Made by a program: the position numbers and the translations under genes. The notes beneath the pieces are model-generated. The model had not been told where the DNA came from. It did no database searches and was given only the letters and a program-made list of their open reading frames with translations. Of a stretch of 40,867 nucleotides of DNA, positions 1-40,867 are shown one piece after another. Within the stretch, counting starts at the first letter, position 1; every line of letters starts with the position of its first letter. Location: sequence record PQ821741.1. One strand, 5' to 3'. The DNA is from a phage.

Positions 1-31
1 ATGAAGTGGTGTGATGCAATCATACCGCTGA
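1..31. other. 31-nt segment that is the exact reverse complement of 40390-40420
   Basis: Manual reverse-complement comparison; adjacent to the terminal direct repeat. Confidence 0.85.
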
Positions 32-480
32 ATCCCTATAGAGTCAAGTCCTAGGGTATACCCATAAAGAGCCTCTAATGGTCTATCCTAAGGTATATAC
101 CTAAAGATAGGCCATCCTATCAGTGTCACCTAAAGAGGGTCTTAGAGATGGCCTAGGGAGTTCCTAGAGGGTCCTTTAAAATATACCATAAAAATCTGAG
201 TGACTATCTCACAGTGTACGGACCTAAAGTTCCCCCATAGGGGTACCTAAAGCCCAGCCAATCACCTAAAGTCAACCTTCGGTTGACCTTGAGGGTCCCT
301 AAGGGTTAGGGTTGACCCTTTGAGTGGGCCTTGGGTGTTACCTTGAGTGTCTCTCTGTGTCCCTATCTGTTACAGCCTCCTAAAGTATCCTCCTAAAGTA
401 TCCTCCTAAAGTCACCTCCTAAAGTCATTCCTACCGTCTACAACCTAAAGACTACACCTAAAGACCCATCAAGTCAACGC
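32..480. repeat. Left copy of 449-bp direct repeat shared with window end (wrap-around of genome ends)
   Basis: Identical to 40419-40867 except one mismatch (54 g vs 40441 a); offset 40387. Confidence 0.95.
207..364 (+). repeat. T7-type terminal repeat, left copy
   Basis: Begins TCTCACAGTGTACGGACC and ends CTCTCTGTGTCCCT as in T7; repeated at 40594-40751. Confidence 0.8.
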
Positions 481-1368: not shown

Positions 1369-1737
1369 ATGGCTATGTCAAACATGACTTACAACAACGT
1401 TTTCGACCACGCTTACGAAATGCTGAAAGAAAACATCCGTTATGATGACATCCGCGACACTGATGACCTGCACGATGCTGTTCATATGGCTGCCGATAGC
1501 GCCGTTCCGCACTATTACAGTGACGTTTTCAGCGTAATGGCGAGCGAGGGCATTGACCTTGAGTTCGAAGACTCTGGCCTGATGCCGGACACCAAGGACG
1601 TAATCCGTATCCTGCAAGCTCGCATCTATGAGCAACTCACGATTGACCTCTGGGAAGACGCTGAGGACTTGCTGAACGAGTACCTTGAGGAAGTCGAAGA
1701 AGAGGAAGAGGAAGACTACGCAGAGGATGAAGAGTAA
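1369..1737 (+). CDS. 0.3: Ocr, DNA-mimic anti-restriction protein (gene 0.3)
   Basis: 122 aa, acidic C-terminus, N-terminus [27 protein letters not shown] as in T7 Ocr. Confidence 0.93.
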
Positions 1738-1877
1738 TGGTTAAATACGGTCTAACAAGAGAAATGCTCCAAACGTACCGCGTGGCTATGGCTTATGGTG
1801 CTTCTTTCGGGTACTGTATGGCACAATTAGCACAGACATACCGAGCACGTAAGGCGATGTACGGTAATAGTAAGTGA
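1737..1877 (+). CDS. 0.4: Gene 0.4-like small early protein (46 aa)
   Basis: ATG overlaps 0.3 stop (TAATG); [12 protein letters not shown]... resembles T7 gp0.4. Confidence 0.6.
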   Translation: MVKYGLTREMLQTYRVAMAYGASFGYCMAQLAQTYRARKAMYGNSK

Positions 1878-1925
1878 TAGGCTCAAGGTCGCTCCATGCG
1901 AGTGGCCTTTATGATTATCATTTAA
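1878..1925 (+). promoter_or_regulatory. RNase III hairpin (ggtcgct...gagtggccttt atgattat motif)
   Basis: T7-type RNase III site motif; second copy at 2288-2335 inside the duplication. Confidence 0.55.
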
Positions 1926-1991
1926 CATGCAATAGGACTAACACCATGAGTAATCTTCTGGTCACCTCCTAGGTCTAGGTGTATGCGCTCT

Positions 1992-2147
1992 ATGCCGGAC
2001 ACCAAGGACGTAATCCGTATCCTGCAAGCTCGCATCTATGAGCAACTCACGATTGACCTCTGGGAAGACGCTGAGGACTTGCTGAACGAGTACCTTGAGG
2101 AAGTCGAAGAAGAGGAAGAGGAAGACTACGCAGAGGATGAAGAGTAA
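1992..2147 (+). pseudogene. Ocr C-terminal fragment ORF created by the duplication (51 aa from internal Met)
   Basis: Identical to 3' 156 nt of gene 0.3; no convincing RBS. Confidence 0.4.
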
Positions 2148-2287
2148 TGGTTAAATACGGTCTAACAAGAGAAATGCTCCAAACGTACCGCGTGGCTATG
2201 GCTTATGGTGCTTCTTTCGGGTACTGTATGGCACAATTAGCACAGACATACCGAGCACGTAAGGCGATGTACGGTAATAGTAAGTGA
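2147..2287 (+). CDS. 0.4: Second identical copy of gene 0.4-like ORF
   Basis: Exact copy of 1737-1877 within the duplicated unit. Confidence 0.5.
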   Translation: MVKYGLTREMLQTYRVAMAYGASFGYCMAQLAQTYRARKAMYGNSK

Positions 2288-2355
2288 TAGGCTCAAGGTC
2301 GCTCCATGCGAGTGGCCTTTATGATTATCATTTAACATGCAATAGGACTAACACC

Positions 2356-2556
2356 ATGAGTAAACTTCTGGCAACCTCCAAAATCCAAGGCCAATGCACT
2401 GTAACGCTGCGTGAGTACTATCACGGGTCAATGGGATGCACCTATGTTGTGCGCTATGGCAAACAGGTCACACATTGGGTAAACCTGATTTTAGCGCAAG
2501 AGGAGTATCAAGCCTGTGTGATACACCAAGCAACATGTGCAGGTTGGAACGATTGA
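2356..2556 (+). CDS. Hypothetical early protein (66 aa)
   Basis: ATG after RNase III site; ORF MSKLLATSKIQGQC...; no T7 counterpart recognised. Confidence 0.5.
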   Translation: MSKLLATSKIQGQCTVTLREYYHGSMGCTYVVRYGKQVTHWVNLILAQEEYQACVIHQATCAGWND

Positions 2557-7362: not shown

Positions 7363-7800
7363 ATGAGAATACATTTTGACATTATGAGTCCATCCTTTCT
7401 CTCATGGGACAATGGTCGCCCAGTAGGAGCCTCTATTCGTAATGGCTATAAGAGGGTTAGATGTGGTGGTAAATGGTTAAATCATCACGTCCTAATCTGG
7501 GAACATTTTAACGGCCCAATCCCTGAGGGAATGGAGATAGACCACATTGACCGTAACAGAGGTAATAACGCACCAAGTAACCTGCGTCTTGTGACTCGCT
7601 CTCAAAATAGCAGAAACAAGTCTACACATAAGAACAACAAGTCTGGAATAAAGGGAGTGTACTGGCACAAACATAGAGAATACTGGTATGGTCAGTGTAA
7701 GAAAAATGGTCAAACATTCAGAACATCCTGCTGCCACACAAAGGAACAGGCGGCTTTACTACTTACTAAACTTAGAGAGGAAATAGGTTATGCAGATTAA
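7363..7800 (+). CDS. HNH homing endonuclease (HNH nuclease motif plus AP2-like DNA-binding region)
   Basis: HHVLIWEHFNGPIPEGMEIDHIDRNRGNNAPSNLRLVTRSQNSRN and GIKGVYWHKHREYWYGQ motifs; overlaps ligase start by 11 nt; not in T7 at this locus. Confidence 0.8.
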   Translation: MRIHFDIMSPSFLSWDNGRPVGASIRNGYKRVRCGGKWLNHHVLIWEHFNGPIPEGMEIDHIDRNRGNNAPSNLRLVTRSQNSRNKSTHKNNKSGIKGVYWHKHREYWYGQCKKNGQTFRTSCCHTKEQAALLLTKLREEIGYAD

Positions 7801-8863
7801 AACAATGCCATTTAAAGCTGTGTCTTTCGTAGAGTCTGCCATTAAGAAAGCTCTGGACAACGCTGGGTATCTTATAGCCGACATCAAGTACGATGGTGTA
7901 CGCGGGAACATCTGCGTAGACAATACCGCTAACAGTTGCTGGCTCTCTCGTGTATCAAAAACGATTCCGGCGCTTTCTTACCTTAATGGGTTCGATACAC
8001 GTTGGCAGCGTCTACTAAAGGATGACCGTTGCTTCTACCCTGATGGCTTCATGCTGGATTGCGAACTTATGGTCAAGGGAGTGGACTTCAATACTGGCTC
8101 CGGCCTTCTGCGGACCAAGTGGCTCAACAAGAAGAACATGCAATTCGATATTGGCGGCCCATATGAATCGTGGGACGCGAGCATGAAGGGACTTCCTTTC
8201 GGCCTTGACCCGAACTTACTAACAGTCAAGCTGTACGCCATCCTTCCGCTGCACATCGTGGAGTCTGGAGAAGACTGTGACGTTATGACGTTGCTAATGC
8301 AGGAACACGTTAAGAACATGCTGCCTCTGCTACAGGAATACTTCCCTGAAATCGAATGGCAAGCGGCTGAGTCTTACGAGGTCTACGACATGGTTGAACT
8401 ACAGCAACTGTACGAGAAGAAGCGTGAAGAAGGTCATGAGGGTCTCATTGTGAAAGACCCGATGTGTATCTATAAGCGCGGCAAGAAGTCCGGCTGGTGG
8501 AAGATGAAGCCAGAGAATGAGGCCGATGGTGTCGTTGTGGGACTCAACTGGGGAACTCCCGGTCTTGCCAACGAGGGAAAGGTGATTGGCTTCGAGGTTC
8601 TCCTTGAGTCTGGTCGAGTGGTATCCGCCAACAACATCTCTCAGGCACTTATGGAGGAGTTCACTAAGACTGTAGCTGAGGCAAGCGGTTACACACTAAC
8701 AGGTGGACCCGTAGTAATTCAAGATGGTCAACCAAAGGTCAACCCTTACGAGGGCTGGGCGTGCCAGATTAGCTACATGGAGGAAACCCCAGACGGCTCT
8801 CTGCGTCACCCATCGTTCGTAATGTTCCGTGGCACCGAGGACAACCCTCAAGAGAAAATGTAA
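7790..8863 (+). CDS. 1.3: ATP-dependent DNA ligase
   Basis: 357 aa; KYDGVRG adenylation motif; C-terminus ...DGSLRHPSFVMFRGTEDNPQEKM as T7 ligase. Confidence 0.95.
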   Translation: MQIKTMPFKAVSFVESAIKKALDNAGYLIADIKYDGVRGNICVDNTANSCWLSRVSKTIPALSYLNGFDTRWQRLLKDDRCFYPDGFMLDCELMVKGVDFNTGSGLLRTKWLNKKNMQFDIGGPYESWDASMKGLPFGLDPNLLTVKLYAILPLHIVESGEDCDVMTLLMQEHVKNMLPLLQEYFPEIEWQAAESYEVYDMVELQQLYEKKREEGHEGLIVKDPMCIYKRGKKSGWWKMKPENEADGVVVGLNWGTPGLANEGKVIGFEVLLESGRVVSANNISQALMEEFTKTVAEASGYTLTGGPVVIQDGQPKVNPYEGWACQISYMEETPDGSLRHPSFVMFRGTEDNPQEKM

Positions 8864-8865
8864 AC

Positions 8866-8900
8866 ACACTGGCTCACCTTAGGGTGGGCCTTTCTGCGTT
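8866..8900 (+). terminator. Early terminator TE (rho-independent)
   Basis: ggctcacc-ttag-ggtgggcc hairpin followed by tttctgcgttt. Confidence 0.85.
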
Positions 8901-8923
8901 TAATACGACTCACTAAAGGAGGT
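8901..8923 (+). promoter_or_regulatory. T7 promoter phi1.5
   Basis: taatacgactcactaaaggaggt. Confidence 0.85.
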
Positions 8924-8930
8924 ACACACC

Positions 8931-9077
8931 ATGATGTACTTAATACCATTATTCATCCCTTACGAGGGCTGGGCGTGCCAGATTAGCTACATGGAGGAAA
9001 CCCCAGACGGCTCTCTGCGTCACCCATCGTTCGTAATGTTCCGTGGCACCGAGGACAACCCTCAAGAGAAAATGTAA
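8931..9077 (+). pseudogene. Chimeric ORF from the duplication: 9 N-terminal codons of the small gene fused in frame to the last 39 codons of ligase
   Basis: MMYLIPLFI + PYEGWACQISYMEETPDGSLRHPSFVMFRGTEDNPQEKM; has the native RBS ggagg. Confidence 0.6.
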
Positions 9078-9079
9078 AC

Positions 9080-9114
9080 ACACTGGCTCACCTTAGGGTG
9101 GGCCTTTCTGCGTT
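9080..9114 (+). terminator. Second copy of TE terminator (in duplication)
   Basis: Identical to 8866-8900. Confidence 0.8.
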
Positions 9115-9137
9115 TAATACGACTCACTAAAGGAGGT
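9115..9137 (+). promoter_or_regulatory. Second copy of phi1.5 promoter (in duplication)
   Basis: Identical to 8901-8923. Confidence 0.8.
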
Positions 9138-9144
9138 ACACACC

Positions 9145-9234
9145 ATGATGTACTTAATACCATTATTCATCGTCATCCTAGGATGCCTTGCGCTCACCTG
9201 TAGCGACGACGATATGCCAGATGGTCACGCTTAA
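9145..9234 (+). CDS. Small protein, gene 1.4/1.5-like (29 aa)
   Basis: MMYLIPLFIVILGCLALTCSDDDMPDGHA; RBS aggagg. Confidence 0.7.
   Translation: MMYLIPLFIVILGCLALTCSDDDMPDGHA

Positions 9235-10043: not shown

Positions 10044-10056
<13 letters not shown>
9520..10056 (+). CDS. 1.7: Gene 1.7 nucleotide kinase
   Basis: 178 aa; TGATG overlap with 1.6; matches T7 gp1.7. Confidence 0.85.
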
Positions 10057-10561
<505 letters not shown>

Positions 10562-15120: not shown

Positions 15121-17352
15121 ATGATCGTTTCTGACATCGAAGCTAACGCCCTCTTAGAGAGCGTCACTAAGTTCCACTGCGGGGTTATCTACGACTACTC
15201 TACCGCTGAGTACGTAAGCTACCGTCCGAGTGACTTCGGTGCGTATCTGGATGCGCTGGAAGCCGAGGTTGCACGAGGCGGTCTTATTGTGTTCCACAAC
15301 GGTCACAAGTATGACGTTCCTGCATTGACAAAACTGGCAAAGCTGCAATTGAACCGAGAGTTCCACATTCCTCGTGAGAACTGTATCGACACCCTTGTGC
15401 TGTCACGCTTGATTCACTCTAACCTCAAGGACACCGACATGGGTCTTCTGCGTTCCGGTAAACTTCCGGGTAAACGCTTTGGGTCTCACGCTTTGGAGGC
15501 GTGGGGTTATCGCTTAGGCGAGATGAAGGGTGAATACAAGGACGACTTTAAGCGTATGCTTGAAGAGCAGGGTGAAGAATACGTTGACGGAATGGAGTGG
15601 TGGAACTTCAACGAAGAGATGATGGCCTATAACGTTCAGGACGTTGTGGTCACTAAGGCTCTCCTTGAGAAATTACTGTCAGACAAGCACTATTTCCCTT
15701 TAGGTTTAGAGCACGTTAATTATGATTCTATAATCTTTTGGAAAGACTCTATCGAAGCTATTGATGTTGAACATAGAGCAGCTTGGTTGTTAGCTAAACA
15801 GGAGCGTAATGGTTTCCCATTTGACGCTAAGGCAATCGAGGAGTTGTACGTAGAGTTAGCTGCTCGCCGCTCTGAGTTGCTCCGCAAATTGACCGAAACG
15901 TTCGGCTCATGGTATCAGCCCAAAGGTGGCACCGAAATGTTCTGCCATCCGAGGACTGGTAAGCCACTGCCCAAATACCCTCGCATTAAGACACCTAAAG
16001 TTGGTGGTATCTTTAAGAAGCCTAAGAACAAGGCACAGCGAGAAGGCCGTGAGCCTTGCGAACTGGATACCCGCGAGTACGTTGCTGGTGCCCCTTACAC
16101 CCCAGTTGAGCATGTAGTGTTTAACCCATCGTCTCGTGACCACATCCAGAAGAAACTCCAAGAGGCTGGATGGGTCCCAACCAAGTACACCGATAAGGGT
16201 GCGCCTGTGGTGGACGATGAGGTACTCGAAGGAGTACGTGTAGATGACCCTGAGAAGCAAGCTGCAATCGACCTCATTAAAGAATACTTGATGATTCAGA
16301 AGCGAATCGGACAGTCTGCTGAGGGAGACAAGGCGTGGCTTCGTTACGTTGCCGATGATGGTAAGATTCACGGCTCTGTAAACCCTAACGGGGCAGTTAC
16401 TGGTCGCGCTACCCATGCTTTCCCCAACCTTGCGCAAATTCCGGGTGTGCGTTCACCTTATGGAGAGCAGTGTCGCGCTGCTTTTGGTGCTGAACATCAC
16501 CTAGACGGTATTACTGGTAAGCCTTGGGTTCAGGCGGGTATCGACGCATCCGGTCTGGAACTACGCTGCTTGGCCCACTTCATGGCTCGCTTTGATAACG
16601 GCGAGTACGCTCACGAGATTCTTAATGGAGACATCCACACTAAGAACCAGATGGCTGCCGACGCATCCGGTCTGGAACTACGCTGCTTGGCCCACTTCAT
16701 GGCTCGCTTTGATAACGGCGAGTACGCTCACGAGATTCTTAATGGAGACATCCACACTAAGAACCAGATGGCTGCCGAATTGCCTACCCGTGATAACGCC
16801 AAGACGTTCATCTATGGGTTCCTCTACGGTGCTGGCGATGAGAAGATTGGGCAGATTGTCGGTGCTGGTAAAGAGCGTGGTAAGGAACTCAAGAAGAAAT
16901 TCCTTGAGAACACCCCTGCGATTGCGGCACTCCGAGAGTCTATCCAACAGACACTTGTTGAGTCCTCTCAGTGGGTAGCTGGCGAACAGCGAGTCAAGTG
17001 GAAACGCCGCTGGATTAAAGGTCTGGATGGTCGCAAGGTACACGTTCGTAGTCCTCACGCTGCCCTGAATACCCTACTGCAATCCGCTGGTGCGCTCATC
17101 TGCAAACTGTGGATTATCAAGACCGAAGAGATGCTCGTAGAGAAAGGCTTGAAGCATGGCTGGGATGGGGACTTTGCGTACATGGCGTGGGTCCACGATG
17201 AAATCCAAGTGGGTTGTCGTACCGAAGAGATTGCTCAGGTGGTCATTGAGACAGCACAAGAAGCGATGCGCTGGGTTGGAGACCACTGGAACTTCCGGTG
17301 TCTTCTGGATACAGAAGGTAAGATGGGTCCTAATTGGGCCGTATGTCACTAA
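15121..17352 (+). CDS. 5: DNA polymerase (family A), carrying an internal 39-aa in-frame tandem duplication
   Basis: 743 aa against 704 in T7; otherwise near-identical to T7 gp5. Confidence 0.95.
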   Translation: MIVSDIEANALLESVTKFHCGVIYDYSTAEYVSYRPSDFGAYLDALEAEVARGGLIVFHNGHKYDVPALTKLAKLQLNREFHIPRENCIDTLVLSRLIHSNLKDTDMGLLRSGKLPGKRFGSHALEAWGYRLGEMKGEYKDDFKRMLEEQGEEYVDGMEWWNFNEEMMAYNVQDVVVTKALLEKLLSDKHYFPLGLEHVNYDSIIFWKDSIEAIDVEHRAAWLLAKQERNGFPFDAKAIEELYVELAARRSELLRKLTETFGSWYQPKGGTEMFCHPRTGKPLPKYPRIKTPKVGGIFKKPKNKAQREGREPCELDTREYVAGAPYTPVEHVVFNPSSRDHIQKKLQEAGWVPTKYTDKGAPVVDDEVLEGVRVDDPEKQAAIDLIKEYLMIQKRIGQSAEGDKAWLRYVADDGKIHGSVNPNGAVTGRATHAFPNLAQIPGVRSPYGEQCRAAFGAEHHLDGITGKPWVQAGIDASGLELRCLAHFMARFDNGEYAHEILNGDIHTKNQMAADASGLELRCLAHFMARFDNGEYAHEILNGDIHTKNQMAAELPTRDNAKTFIYGFLYGAGDEKIGQIVGAGKERGKELKKKFLENTPAIAALRESIQQTLVESSQWVAGEQRVKWKRRWIKGLDGRKVHVRSPHAALNTLLQSAGALICKLWIIKTEEMLVEKGLKHGWDGDFAYMAWVHDEIQVGCRTEEIAQVVIETAQEAMRWVGDHWNFRCLLDTEGKMGPNWAVCH
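16542..16775 (+). repeat. Exact in-frame tandem duplication, 117-bp unit (16542-16658 and 16659-16775)
   Basis: 120 nt identity at offset 117 with cga microhomology; encodes DASGLELRCLAHFMARFDNGEYAHEILNGDIHTKNQMAA twice. Confidence 0.95.
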
Positions 17353-17814
17353 TTCTAAAGGAGAAATTATTATGGCTATGACCAAGAAATTTAAAGTGTC
17401 CTTCGATGTTACCGCTAAGATGCCATCTGACGTTCAGGCAATCTTAGAGAAAGACATGCTACACCTGTGTAAGCAGGTTGGCTCCGGTGCTATCGTGCCA
17501 GATGGTAAACAGAAGGAAATGATTGTACAGTTCCTGACATATGGTTGGAGACCACTGGAACTTCCGGTGTCTTCTGGATACAGAAGGTAAGATGGGTCCT
17601 AATTGGGCCGTATGTCACTAATTCTAAAGGAGAAATTATTATGGCTATGACCAAGAAATTTAAAGTGTCCTTCGATGTTACCGCTAAGATGCCATCTGAC
17701 GTTCAGGCAATCTTAGAGAAAGACATGCTACACCTGTGTAAGCAGGTTGGCTCCGGTGCTATCGTGCCAGATGGTAAACAGAAGGAAATGATTGTACAGT
17801 TCCTGACATATGGT
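17277..17814 (+). repeat. Exact tandem duplication, 269-bp unit (17277-17545 and 17546-17814)
   Basis: 272 nt identity at offset 269 with ggt microhomology; spans gene 5 3' end, intergenic RBS and 5' 56 codons of gene 5.5. Confidence 0.95.
17372..17590 (+). pseudogene. Truncated gene 5.5 copy fused out of frame to a duplicated gene 5 tail (72 aa)
   Basis: First 56 codons identical to gene 5.5, then frame-shifted tail WRPLELPVSSGYRR*. Confidence 0.7.
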
Positions 17815-17940
17815 ATGGAAGGTGTGATGACGTTCGTAGTGCGTACAGCGTTTCGTGAGGCCATCAAGGACATGCACGAAGAGTATGCCGATAAGGACTC
17901 CTTCAAACTATCTCCTGCAACAGTACGGGAGGTGTTCTAA
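17641..17940 (+). CDS. 5.5: Gp5.5 (H-NS-binding protein)
   Basis: 99 aa MAMTKKFKVSFDVTAKM...SPATVREVF. Confidence 0.9.
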   Translation: MAMTKKFKVSFDVTAKMPSDVQAILEKDMLHLCKQVGSGAIVPDGKQKEMIVQFLTYGMEGVMTFVVRTAFREAIKDMHEEYADKDSFKLSPATVREVF

Positions 17941-35052: not shown

Positions 35053-35736
35053 ATGGCTAACGTAATTAAAACAGTTTTGACTTACCCGTTAGATGGCTCC
35101 ACTCGTGATTTTAATATCCCGTTTGAGTATCTAGCCCGTAAGTTCGTAGTGGTAACTCTTATTGGTGTAGACCGCAAGGTCCTTACGATTAATACAGACT
35201 ACCGTTTTGCTACTCGCACTACCATCTCATTAACCAAGGCTTGGGGTCCAGCGGATGGATATACTACCATCGAGTTGCGCCGAGTAACCTCAACTACCGA
35301 CCGATTGGTTGACTTTACAGATGGTTCAATCCTCCGTGCATATGACCTTAACGTGGCTCAGATTCAGACTATGCATGTGGCAGAAGAGGCACGTGACTTA
35401 ACTGCGGATACAATCGGTGTCAATAGTGACGGTCACTTGGATGCCCGTGGTCGTCGAATTGTGAACCTAGCGAACGCTGTAGATGATTATGATGCCATCA
35501 ACCTACGTCAGGTTAAGCTGTGGAACAATAGTGCGTATCAATCAGCCGTGAACGCGAAGACCTCTGAGACGAACGCTAAGACCTCTGAGACAAACGCCTT
35601 AACATACCGCAATTCTGCTGCTGCTAGTGCCACCGCTGCAAGCACTTCTGAGACGAACGCGAAGACCTCTGAGACGAACGCGAAGACCTCTGAGACGAAC
35701 GCGAAGACCTCTGAGATTACTGCGAAGTTCCTATAA
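35053..35736 (+). pseudogene. 17: Tail fibre gene 17, N-terminal part, ending at premature TAA
   Basis: MANVIKTVLTY...FNIPFEYLARKFVVVTLIGVDRKVLT... matches T7/T3 gp17 N-terminus; frame ends ...TSEITAKFL* at 35734-36. Confidence 0.85.
35556..35723 (+). repeat. 21-bp tandem repeats encoding the heptad TSETNAK (2 units, 42-bp spacer, 4 units)
   Basis: gaagacctctgagacgaacgc repeated; two adjacent units are nucleotide-identical. Confidence 0.85.
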
Positions 35737-35868
35737 GGATGCTGCTGCTTCAAGTGCCACTGCTTCTGCTGCTAGTGCAGCTACCTGTAAGGCAGTTGCT
35801 ATAAGGATGCTGCTGCTTCAAGTGCCACTGCTTCTGCTGCTAGTGCAGCTACCTCTAAGGCAGAGGCC
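35733..35868 (+). repeat. Imperfect 68-bp tandem repeat inside gene 17 (35733-35800 and 35801-35868)
   Basis: First ~55 nt identical, 3' ends differ; copy 1 is +1 relative to the gene frame and carries TAA/TAG/TAA stops. Confidence 0.85.
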
Positions 35869-36489
35869 GACCGCGCGGAGCTACGTGCAAACCAAGCAGG
35901 TGGAGCTAGGGTTATAAACGGAATCTATCCAGATTCTAGTGGAAGCGTAACACTCACTACTGATGACATCAAAGACCCATCTGGTGTTACCATAATGATG
36001 GCTGTTCGATCTATGATTGACGCTATCTTTCCTGTCGGTATTCGCATGGATTGGCCTCTCGCTTCCCTTCCCGATAATCCAACACTTGGTGTTAAGTTTC
36101 TTAGGTTGGATGGGTCTAGCTTTGATAAAACACAGTACCCCAAGCTGGCTGCCATATATCCGTCTGGAGTTTTGCCAGATTTACGTGGTGAGTTTATTCG
36201 TGGCTGGGATGACGGGCGCGGGGTTGATGGTGGGCGCGTTGTTTTAACTGGTCAGAGCCAATCAGTACAGCAGCATACTCATGGTCTAGCGATGGCATAC
36301 AGTTCAGAGAGCGGTTACAAGGACAAGCTAGGCGCTGGCCCTAACTCTGACATGATTCCGATTAAAGATATGATTAAAGTAACCACTTTTACTGGTTCTG
36401 GTGAGTATTACTTAAAGGCGAATGATTCAACAGGTGTTGAAACTCGCCCGCGCAACGTCGCATTTAACTTCATCGTGAGGGCCGCATAA
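35803..36489 (+). pseudogene. 17: Tail fibre gene 17, C-terminal part with tip 1 (in frame with N-terminal part but separated by stops)
   Basis: KDAAASSATASAASAATSKAEADRAE...GEFIRGWDDGRGVDGGR...TRPRNVAFNFIVRAA*; no own start or RBS. Confidence 0.8.
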
Positions 36490-36841
36490 TGACACAGGCA
36501 AAATTAAACAGTGAATTTATTGCCACAGTAGCGGGTGATATGAAGATTCTAGTGGAAGCGTAACACTCACTACTGATGACATCAAAGACCCATCTGGTGT
36601 TACCATAATGATGGCTGTTCGATCTATGATTGACGCTATCTTTCCTGTCGGTATTCGCATGGATTGGCCTCTCGCTTCCCTTCCCGATAATCCAACACTT
36701 GGTGTTAAGTTTCTTAGGTTGGATGGGTCTAGCTTTGATAAAACACAGTACCCCAAGCTGGCTGCCATATATCCGTCTGGAGTTTTGCCAGATTTACGTG
36801 GTGAGTTTATTCGTGGCTGGGATGACGGGCGCGGGGTTGAT
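35931..36841 (+). repeat. 298-bp exact direct repeat (35931-36228 and 36544-36841), period 613 bp
   Basis: Base-by-base identical; both copies encode ...DSSGSVTLTTDDIKDPSGVTIMMAVRSMIDAIFPVGIRMDW...GEFIRGWDDGRGVD. Confidence 0.95.
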
Positions 36842-37123
36842 AGAGGGCGCGGATTAATGAGTGCTCAGGGCGATGCCATTCGGAATATTACTGGTCGCAT
36901 TAGGGGCGGGTCATCTGGGTCTTATGGTAAAATCTTCCTGGATGAATCTAGTGGTGCTTTTTTCCCTTCCGGTGAGGATGGAGAACAGTTCCATCCTTCA
37001 TCGACACCTCTACCTTATGGGAGATACAACACTGTAGATTTTGATGCTAGCAGGGTAGTCCCAACTGCCGACGAAAACCGCCCAAGAAACGTTGCGTGGA
37101 ATATGATTGTGAGGGCATCGTAA
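36539..37123 (+). other. Promoterless, startless second tail-fibre C-terminal cassette (tip 2)
   Basis: Reading frame opens after TGA at 36536-38; shared 298-bp stem then divergent tip ...NRPRNVAWNMIVRAS*; no RBS; first ATG is the internal Met-Met at 36608. Confidence 0.75.
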
Positions 37124-40354: not shown

Positions 40355-40418
40355 GGTCTTCCTGACCGACTGATGGCTCACCGAGGGATTCAGCGGTATG
40401 ATTGCATCACACCACTTC

Positions 40419-40867
40419 ATCCCTATAGAGTCAAGTCCTAAGGTATACCCATAAAGAGCCTCTAATGGTCTATCCTAAGGTATATACCTAAAGATAGGCC
40501 ATCCTATCAGTGTCACCTAAAGAGGGTCTTAGAGATGGCCTAGGGAGTTCCTAGAGGGTCCTTTAAAATATACCATAAAAATCTGAGTGACTATCTCACA
40601 GTGTACGGACCTAAAGTTCCCCCATAGGGGTACCTAAAGCCCAGCCAATCACCTAAAGTCAACCTTCGGTTGACCTTGAGGGTCCCTAAGGGTTAGGGTT
40701 GACCCTTTGAGTGGGCCTTGGGTGTTACCTTGAGTGTCTCTCTGTGTCCCTATCTGTTACAGCCTCCTAAAGTATCCTCCTAAAGTATCCTCCTAAAGTC
40801 ACCTCCTAAAGTCATTCCTACCGTCTACAACCTAAAGACTACACCTAAAGACCCATCAAGTCAACGC
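40419..40867. repeat. Right copy of 449-bp direct repeat (wrap-around into the genome left end)
   Basis: Identical to 32-480 except one mismatch. Confidence 0.95.
40594..40751 (+). repeat. T7-type terminal repeat, right copy
   Basis: Identical to 207-364. Confidence 0.8.

Follow-up and report, generated by a model that had tools for sequence, protein, structure and literature searches.

In the classical work on bacteriophage T7, deletions were described between repeats of 5-20 bp. The replicative enzyme of this phage, the 704-amino-acid (aa) product of gene 5 (gp5), is the closest described counterpart of the protein considered here, and in it Asp475, Ala476 and Asp654 coordinate the catalytic Mg2+ ions (PMC8715121). 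In this work we analysed gene 5 of a T7-like (Teseptimavirus) genome, a phage DNA of 40,867 nucleotides (nt) in sequence record PQ821741.1, read on one strand from 5' to 3' (called the window below, at its full length), and found that a 117-bp unit encoding the catalytic aspartate stands twice within the gene, head to tail and in frame. We give about an even chance (roughly 0.5) to the reading that this duplication is a real, very recent event in phage DNA, which would have arisen in vivo by a microhomology-mediated template switch.

The repeat was detected by several programs with the same result. Tandem Repeats Finder (TRF) reported positions 16542-16778 with a period of 117, 2.0 copies, 100% matches and no indels, and an exact-match scan together with self-BLAST gave a run of 120 identical nt at offset 117 (16542-16661 being equal to 16659-16778). 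The 120-nt run is made up of the 117-bp unit and a junction microhomology of 3 nt, CGA, leaving an ambiguity of 3 nt in the position of the breakpoint. The unit, CGACGCATCC...GATGGCTGC, is repeated without any spacer, and the novel junction at 16658/16659 is sharp (GCTGC/CGACGC, the slash marking the junction). An exact adjacent repeat of 120 nt cannot be due to chance. It lies in frame inside the gene 5 open reading frame (ORF) and adds 39 aa to the product. All the coordinates and numbers given by the first-pass annotation, which had been made from the letters alone, proved to be right: the exact 117-bp repeat with 120 nt of identity including the CGA junction was recovered by TRF and the exact-match scan, and the in-frame duplication of 39 aa, giving 743 aa against 704 in T7, by the ORF and the alignment to PDB structures. 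A hairpin that would bring the breakpoints together was also considered and rejected, since the unit, folded as single-stranded DNA, did no better than shuffled sequences (z = -0.12).

The gene 5 product is clearly a family A (Pol I-type) DNA polymerase of the T7 gp5 subfamily. It matched the Pfam family PF00476 (DNA_pol_A) with 170.1 bits against a gathering cut-off of 34.3, the match being split into two stretches by the repeat. In the alignment to the solved T7 DNA polymerase, residues 1-514 of the query correspond to T7 residues 1-514 and residues 514-743 to T7 residues 475-704, and the T7 segment 475-513 (DASGLELRCLAHFMARFDNGEYAHEILNGDIHTKNQMAA) is present twice in the 743-aa protein. The same alignment bore out the statement of the first-pass annotation that the repeat begins at the equivalent of Asp475 and doubles motif A (D-x-S-x-x-E), which is read as DASGLELR at 475-482 and again at 514-521. 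Motif B (R-x-x-x-K-x-x-x-F/Y-G-x-x-Y-G) is found as RDNAKTFIYGFLYG at 557-570 and motif C as HDE at 692-694, and the motif residues align to D475, R518, K522, Y526 and D654 of T7. The part equivalent to T7 residues 1-474, including the exonuclease and the thumb insertion (thioredoxin-binding region), is colinear and gap-free; residues D5 and E7 of the N-terminal 3'-5' exonuclease, motifs B and C and the C-terminal His are intact.

The first-pass annotation had allowed for related polymerases that naturally carry the insertion; such polymerases were looked for, and none was found to carry the repeat. Each of the 40 listed phage records in which the polymerase gene is close gave a two-piece alignment over about 2,115 nt, corresponding to a single copy, and no insertion was seen in any homologue among 739 phage records. 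The best 120 of 3,233 protein hits (clusters) were 693-723 aa long, with the repeat in none of them, and in 80 IMG/VR loci the polymerase matches extended over at most 2,190 nt, never reaching 2,229. A tblastn search with the junction peptide against 50,697 phage records gave no colinear match, and the exact junction 37-mer had 0 matches in IMG/VR and GTDB genomes. Seven matches to a degenerate pattern of the junction peptide in IMG/VR and JGI metagenomes turned out to be false, as they belong to distant polymerases with motif A in its native single-copy context, LAAADASGLE. The native 54-mer from the left boundary also had 0 matches in IMG/VR, so that no near-identical relative is present there. 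Since the two copies are 100% identical and no relative carries the repeat, it is not an established lineage feature; it is either an error or a structural variant of very recent date that is private to this contig, and not a new kind of polymerase.

The 117-bp unit is not the only duplication in the window. Five more private tandem duplications, of 410, 214, 163, 269 and 68 bp, were found (Table 1); the first-pass annotation had missed these siblings, one of which lies across the 3' end of gene 5. Because the window of 41 kb contains six such duplications while comparable ones occur once in 96 related loci (885 kb), the polymerase repeat has to be explained jointly with the others. Single copies are present in T7, Cedecea phage Yanou, N30 and 04922B at each of the five larger sites, the 117-bp site included, and the 68-bp tail-fibre unit has no counterpart in these four genomes. 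The 410-bp duplication covers the 3' part of gene 0.3 and a 0.4-like ORF, with gene 0.3 (1369-1737) intact. The 214-bp duplication covers the last ~40 codons and the stop of the ligase gene (7790-8863) and ~90 bp downstream, the ligase being intact in copy 1, and the 163-bp unit is the entire small gene 1.8, from its own ATG to the ATG of gene 2. The 269-bp duplication takes in the end of gene 5 (its last 25 codons with the stop), the stretch between the genes and ~57 codons from the start of gene 5.5; copy 1 gives a complete gene 5 and copy 2 a complete gene 5.5 (17641-17940). The lone comparable duplication among the relatives is an exact 66-bp in-frame unit at 1998-2137 of locus L067 (IMGVR_UViG_2974555077_000001), ~1 kb upstream of the polymerase gene of that locus.

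Table 1. Positions in the window of gene 5, of the parts of its internal repeat and of the other tandem duplications
Feature	Position	Strand	Description
Gene 5 DNA polymerase ORF	15121..17352	+	743 aa plus stop; from the ORF list, tblastn with T7 gp5, PDB alignment and Pfam PF00476
Copy 1 of the 117-bp unit	16542..16658	+	residues 475-513, including catalytic Asp475 (codon 16543-16545), Ala476, Glu480 and His506
Copy 2 of the 117-bp unit	16659..16775	+	100% identical; residues 514-552; second Asp codon 16660-16662
CGA microhomology	16776..16778	+	the same trinucleotide opens both copies (16542-16544, 16659-16661)
Loop (E)LPT and O helix/motif B	16779..16830	+	motif B at residues 557-570; immediately after copy 2; natural indel site
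410-bp duplication	1582..2379	+	388 bp repeated at offset 410; 3 mismatches beside the junction, then 22-nt filler (1970-1991)
214-bp duplication, two copies	8743..9171	+	exact; 1-nt microhomology C
163-bp duplication, two copies	10044..10372	+	exact; ATG microhomology
269-bp duplication, two copies	17274..17814	+	exact; GGT microhomology
68-bp duplication, two copies	35726..35861	+	2 mismatches; inside tail-fibre gene 17; the only duplication disrupting a gene

The four exact duplications have junction microhomologies of 3, 3, 1 and 3 nt (CGA, ATG, C and GGT, respectively). With random placement in this genome, microhomology of at least 3 nt is expected in 5% of junctions; the probability of at least 3 nt in at least three of four is 5e-4, and that of a sum of at least 10 nt is 0.0035. 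Because the microhomology exceeds chance, naive in-silico concatenation or pasting is ruled out, and the junctions point to template switching on real molecules. The placement of the units is also not what random events would give. None of the 410, 214, 163 and 269-bp units is a multiple of 3 in length, and each of them spans a gene end and keeps one intact copy of every gene; the only intragenic unit besides the 68-bp one is the 117-bp unit, whose length is a multiple of 3. The probability of such gene-sparing placement at random is 0.016 for the four units, or 0.04 for at least four of five when the 68-bp unit is counted. The excess of microhomology and the gene-sparing placement together suggest real template-switch events filtered by selection. 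In the case of gene 5, while the concatemeric T7-type genome was being replicated or recombined, a 3' end at ...GCTGC-CGA (the end of the Ala513/Glu514 codons) would re-pair with the CGA 117 bp upstream (Ile474/Asp475), and the segment would then be copied a second time, as one of six such events private to this genome.

The consequence for the enzyme was considered on structural models. In a control model of the T7 polymerase, DSSP assigned a strand to residues 470-475, helices to 479-491, 495-502 and 505-513, a loop to 514-517 and the O helix to 518-529. The duplicated unit thus consists of the catalytic Asp and three helices, and its end falls exactly at the loop that precedes the O helix. 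The tandem duplication can be regarded as an insertion of 39 aa at any single point of the unit, and two arrangements may be envisaged. Copy 1 may be native as a whole, in which case copy 2 would be inserted into the loop (514-517) that joins helix 505-513 to the O helix; alternatively, as in the AlphaFold (AF2) model, strand 470-475 would be kept, residues 478-516 would be looped out and the three helices would be supplied by copy 2. The full active-site set would be retained, namely the equivalents of D475, A476, E480 and H506, followed by those of R518, K522, Y526 and D654. The model of the 743-aa protein had a mean predicted local distance difference test score (pLDDT) of 67 and a predicted template modelling score (pTM) of 0.65, the mean pLDDT of the T7 control being 72, and its template modelling score (TM-score) to T7 DNA polymerase structures was 0.7-0.8. 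Residues 478-516, with pLDDT below 50, are the only newly disordered part of the model compared with the T7 control built from the same alignment; the weak segments 100-138 and 400-440 are also weak in the control. What the model shows is no more than that the 743-aa sequence could adopt a native-like fold. The modelling proposed in the first-pass annotation gave a partial answer: the 39 residues are looped out and the fold is kept in the prediction, but which copy is native is not decidable from it, since MAFFT had put copy 2 against the homologues and the choice of copy is biased by this alignment.

In about 40 phage records from two genera, the loop before the O helix (window ~16776-16790) has a natural, conserved extension of 14 aa relative to T7, and for this reason we regard the site as permissive for insertion. 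The carriers are Cedecea phage Yanou, EG1, CICC 80001, vB_Yep_9, EFA-2 and about 34 records of Klebsiella phages of the genus Przondovirus; among the loci compared here, the extension was noted in L002 (Yanou, 16229-16595), L015 and L016. The polymerase of the window does not belong to these natural long-loop variants, as it has ELPT like T7 and not LAPN..(D/E)K...EH..M between helix N and the O helix. Because the duplication is in frame and adjacent to the loop, outright loss of function is disfavoured, and the predicted 743-aa enzyme is probably still active, perhaps impaired. The damage to folding or catalysis which the first-pass annotation expected is possible; as an expectation it is unsupported, given that copy 2 can sit in the natural +14-aa loop and that AlphaFold keeps the fold.

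The contig from which the repeat comes holds a complete genome of the T7-like type and has T7-type promoters. The records closest to it are N30, C5, 04922B, Cedecea phage Yanou and T7, at about 92% DNA identity. In a tblastn gene map, about 50 T7 and Yanou proteins matched it over their full length, each in a single frame, and no frameshifts were seen across the remaining ~40 kb (about 50 other genes). Position 1 of T7 corresponds to window position 207 and the T7 right end to window position ~40751, both physical genome ends being overrun by the contig. The termini (window 1-480 and 40388-40867) overlap by 426-476 bp across the concatemer junction, positions 55-480 being identical to 40442-40867 (426 bp exact), and window positions 1-37 match 40384-40420 in reverse complement, through the in-place inversion of a quasi-palindrome that sits ~206 nt left of the terminal repeat. 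The 10 mismatches in the terminal overlap were considered as a sign of noisy sequence or of a strain mixture, and this was rejected, as they are accounted for by the in-place inversion and the other 426 bp are exact. T7 concatemer processing reportedly makes a hairpin end somewhere near the concatemer junction. The contig is raw and unfinished, and it either crosses the concatemer junction or derives from a circular assembly graph.

It is therefore a question of a real event against an artefact, because six private duplications, a broken tail-fibre gene and raw ends occur in the same contig. If an artefact of assembly or library were the cause, the junction would come from rare chimeras (template switching during the polymerase chain reaction or multiple displacement amplification, or fragments ligated to themselves) or from a variant present in a small minority, the assembler would have threaded the loop once, and the dominant genome would be without the duplication. 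We hold this to be nearly as probable as a real event. Several observations fit it and at the same time weigh against a real event. That a single contig should have six private duplications, when its relatives have one in 885 kb, calls for a special explanation, and such explanations lie more often in pipeline errors than in biology. The units are all of 410 bp or less, the scale of fragments in a sequencing library, and their copies are identical or nearly so, which would require six very recent events. The ends of the contig are unpolished, with the overrun, the terminal overlap and the inverted 37-nt start described above. Gene 17, the essential tail-fibre gene, is broken as written: the frame-1 ORF that runs from 35053 meets a stop at 35734, within the first copy of the 68-bp duplication, so that the contig, taken as a whole, does not represent a viable genome. 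Moreover, the rate at which T7 undergoes deletion between direct repeats is said to climb steeply with repeat length, and exact repeats of 117-410 bp would therefore be expected to be unstable and to reach fixation only with difficulty. None of the junctions was found in relatives or independent assemblies, and exact-protein look-ups of the polymerase, the primase-helicase and the RNA polymerase found no independent assembly of the same phage; a Logan contig matching the portal protein is a different phage (only 96.4% DNA identity), and the P0001 contigs are T7 itself. Template switching in vitro leaves microhomology too. On the other side, chimeric reads escape selection, yet five of the six duplications leave genes intact (P ~0.016-0.04), and the other 40 kb of the contig are without frameshifts. 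Assemblers usually collapse exact tandem repeats, and a majority consensus should drop rare junctions.

The duplication could also be real and yet inactivating, with a crippled polymerase on defective genomes that complementing wild-type phage would carry along at high multiplicity. Four active-site residues lie in the duplicated segment, which starts at the metal ligand Asp475, AlphaFold predicts a disordered loop of 39 residues two residues past the catalytic Asp, and the tail-fibre gene of the same contig is broken as well. However, the duplication is in frame and the adjoining loop naturally tolerates 14 additional aa; the other duplications spare genes, which is unexpected in complemented junk genomes, and a defective genome would seldom dominate a consensus. 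We thus hold this explanation to be unlikely. It is more doubtful still that a viable duplicated polymerase, prone to slippage or template switching, has acted as a mutator and caused the other five duplications in its own genome. The burst of duplications coincides with an altered fingers/palm region of the replicase, and of the six events two involve gene 5 (P ~0.045); nothing else speaks for it among our results. T7 DNA polymerase is said to slip in vitro. On the other hand, the co-occurrence is equally explained by a pipeline artefact, and the unit is without secondary structure that would favour slippage (z = -0.12). That the repeat is an established lineage-specific insertion, a conserved extra subdomain in a T7-like clade, is effectively refuted. 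Family A polymerases do carry lineage-specific loop insertions, for example the thioredoxin-binding domain, and relatives have the +14-aa loop; but the two copies here show no divergence at the nucleotide level, and the insertion is absent from the 739 phage records, the best 120 of the 3,233 protein hits and the 80 IMG/VR loci.

In the tail-fibre region, removal of the 68 bp leaves the frame of gene 17 unrestored. The C-terminal part with the Collar domain (35791-36489) is open in frame 1 and lacks a start codon, and a search for an intact homologue across the break, which would show the ancestral state, gave no informative match. Two consecutive tail-collar (PF07484) receptor-binding modules are present, in the ORFs 35995-36489 and 36608-37123. 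They share 308 bp at 99% identity (35931-36238 / 36544-36851, offset 613) and then diverge; this repeat was considered as an event of the same type as the 410-bp one and rejected, as it belongs to two paralogous Collar-domain ORFs. The second module is without an N-terminal fibre part; it could represent a cassette for an alternative tip, or what is left of a recombination with fibre genes of the P2/HK97 type. At 35550-35716, 21-bp in-frame repeats encode (T)SETNAK heptads in the tail-fibre shaft, in two blocks, one of them with 3.3 exact copies; over 64 aa, 78% identity is shared with the L-shaped fibre of T5-like Salmonella phages. Elsewhere in the contig, an HNH-endonuclease-like ORF with 50% identity to T7 gp3.8 over 76 aa lies at 7363-7800, between gene 1.2 and the ligase gene, and the T7 genes 2.8, 5.3 and 7.7 are missing; mosaicism of this sort is ordinary in the group.

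If the duplication is real and the phage viable, the most conserved part of a model replicative polymerase, which runs from the catalytic Asp to the last of the helices preceding the O helix, can accommodate a duplication of 39 residues. Such a case would also offer a natural entry into the study of the origin and persistence of tandem duplications in T7-type genomes, and, if the mutator explanation were true, gene 5 of this phage would be a natural mutator allele of a model replicase for structural variation. If it is an artefact, the contig has six spurious duplications and a broken tail-fibre gene, and it would be unsuitable for annotation, for protein-family length statistics and for phage engineering until the reads are checked.

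Compared with known systems, the contig resembles assembly or library chimeras in its many short (up to 410 bp) exact duplications, its raw ends and the broken essential gene, and differs from them in the gene-sparing placement, which is unexpected for random chimeras. With the microhomology-mediated duplications and deletions of T7 and Escherichia coli, which arise by slippage or template switching, the present repeats have in common the head-to-tail arrangement, the identical copies and the above-chance junction microhomology of 1-3 nt, while six simultaneous duplications in one genome are unusual. The long-loop polymerases of Cedecea phage Yanou, Escherichia phages EG1 and CICC 80001, Yersinia phage vB_Yep_9 and the Klebsiella Przondovirus phages (718-722 aa) have extra residues at the same place of the fold, and these phages are viable; however, theirs is a conserved, diverged and non-repetitive extension of 14 aa (LAPNVARDKHNKEHDLM replacing ELPT), whereas here an exact 39-aa copy including motif A is found. 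T7 gp5 itself (PDB 1T7P, 2AJQ, 6N7W) is ~97% identical outside the repeat and shares with the present protein the exonuclease, the thumb with the thioredoxin-binding loop, the palm and the fingers, together with motifs A, B and C and the C-terminal His. The difference lies in the length, 704 against 743 aa, and in residues 475-513, the catalytic Asp with helices 479-491, 495-502 and 505-513, which stand once in T7 and in tandem here.

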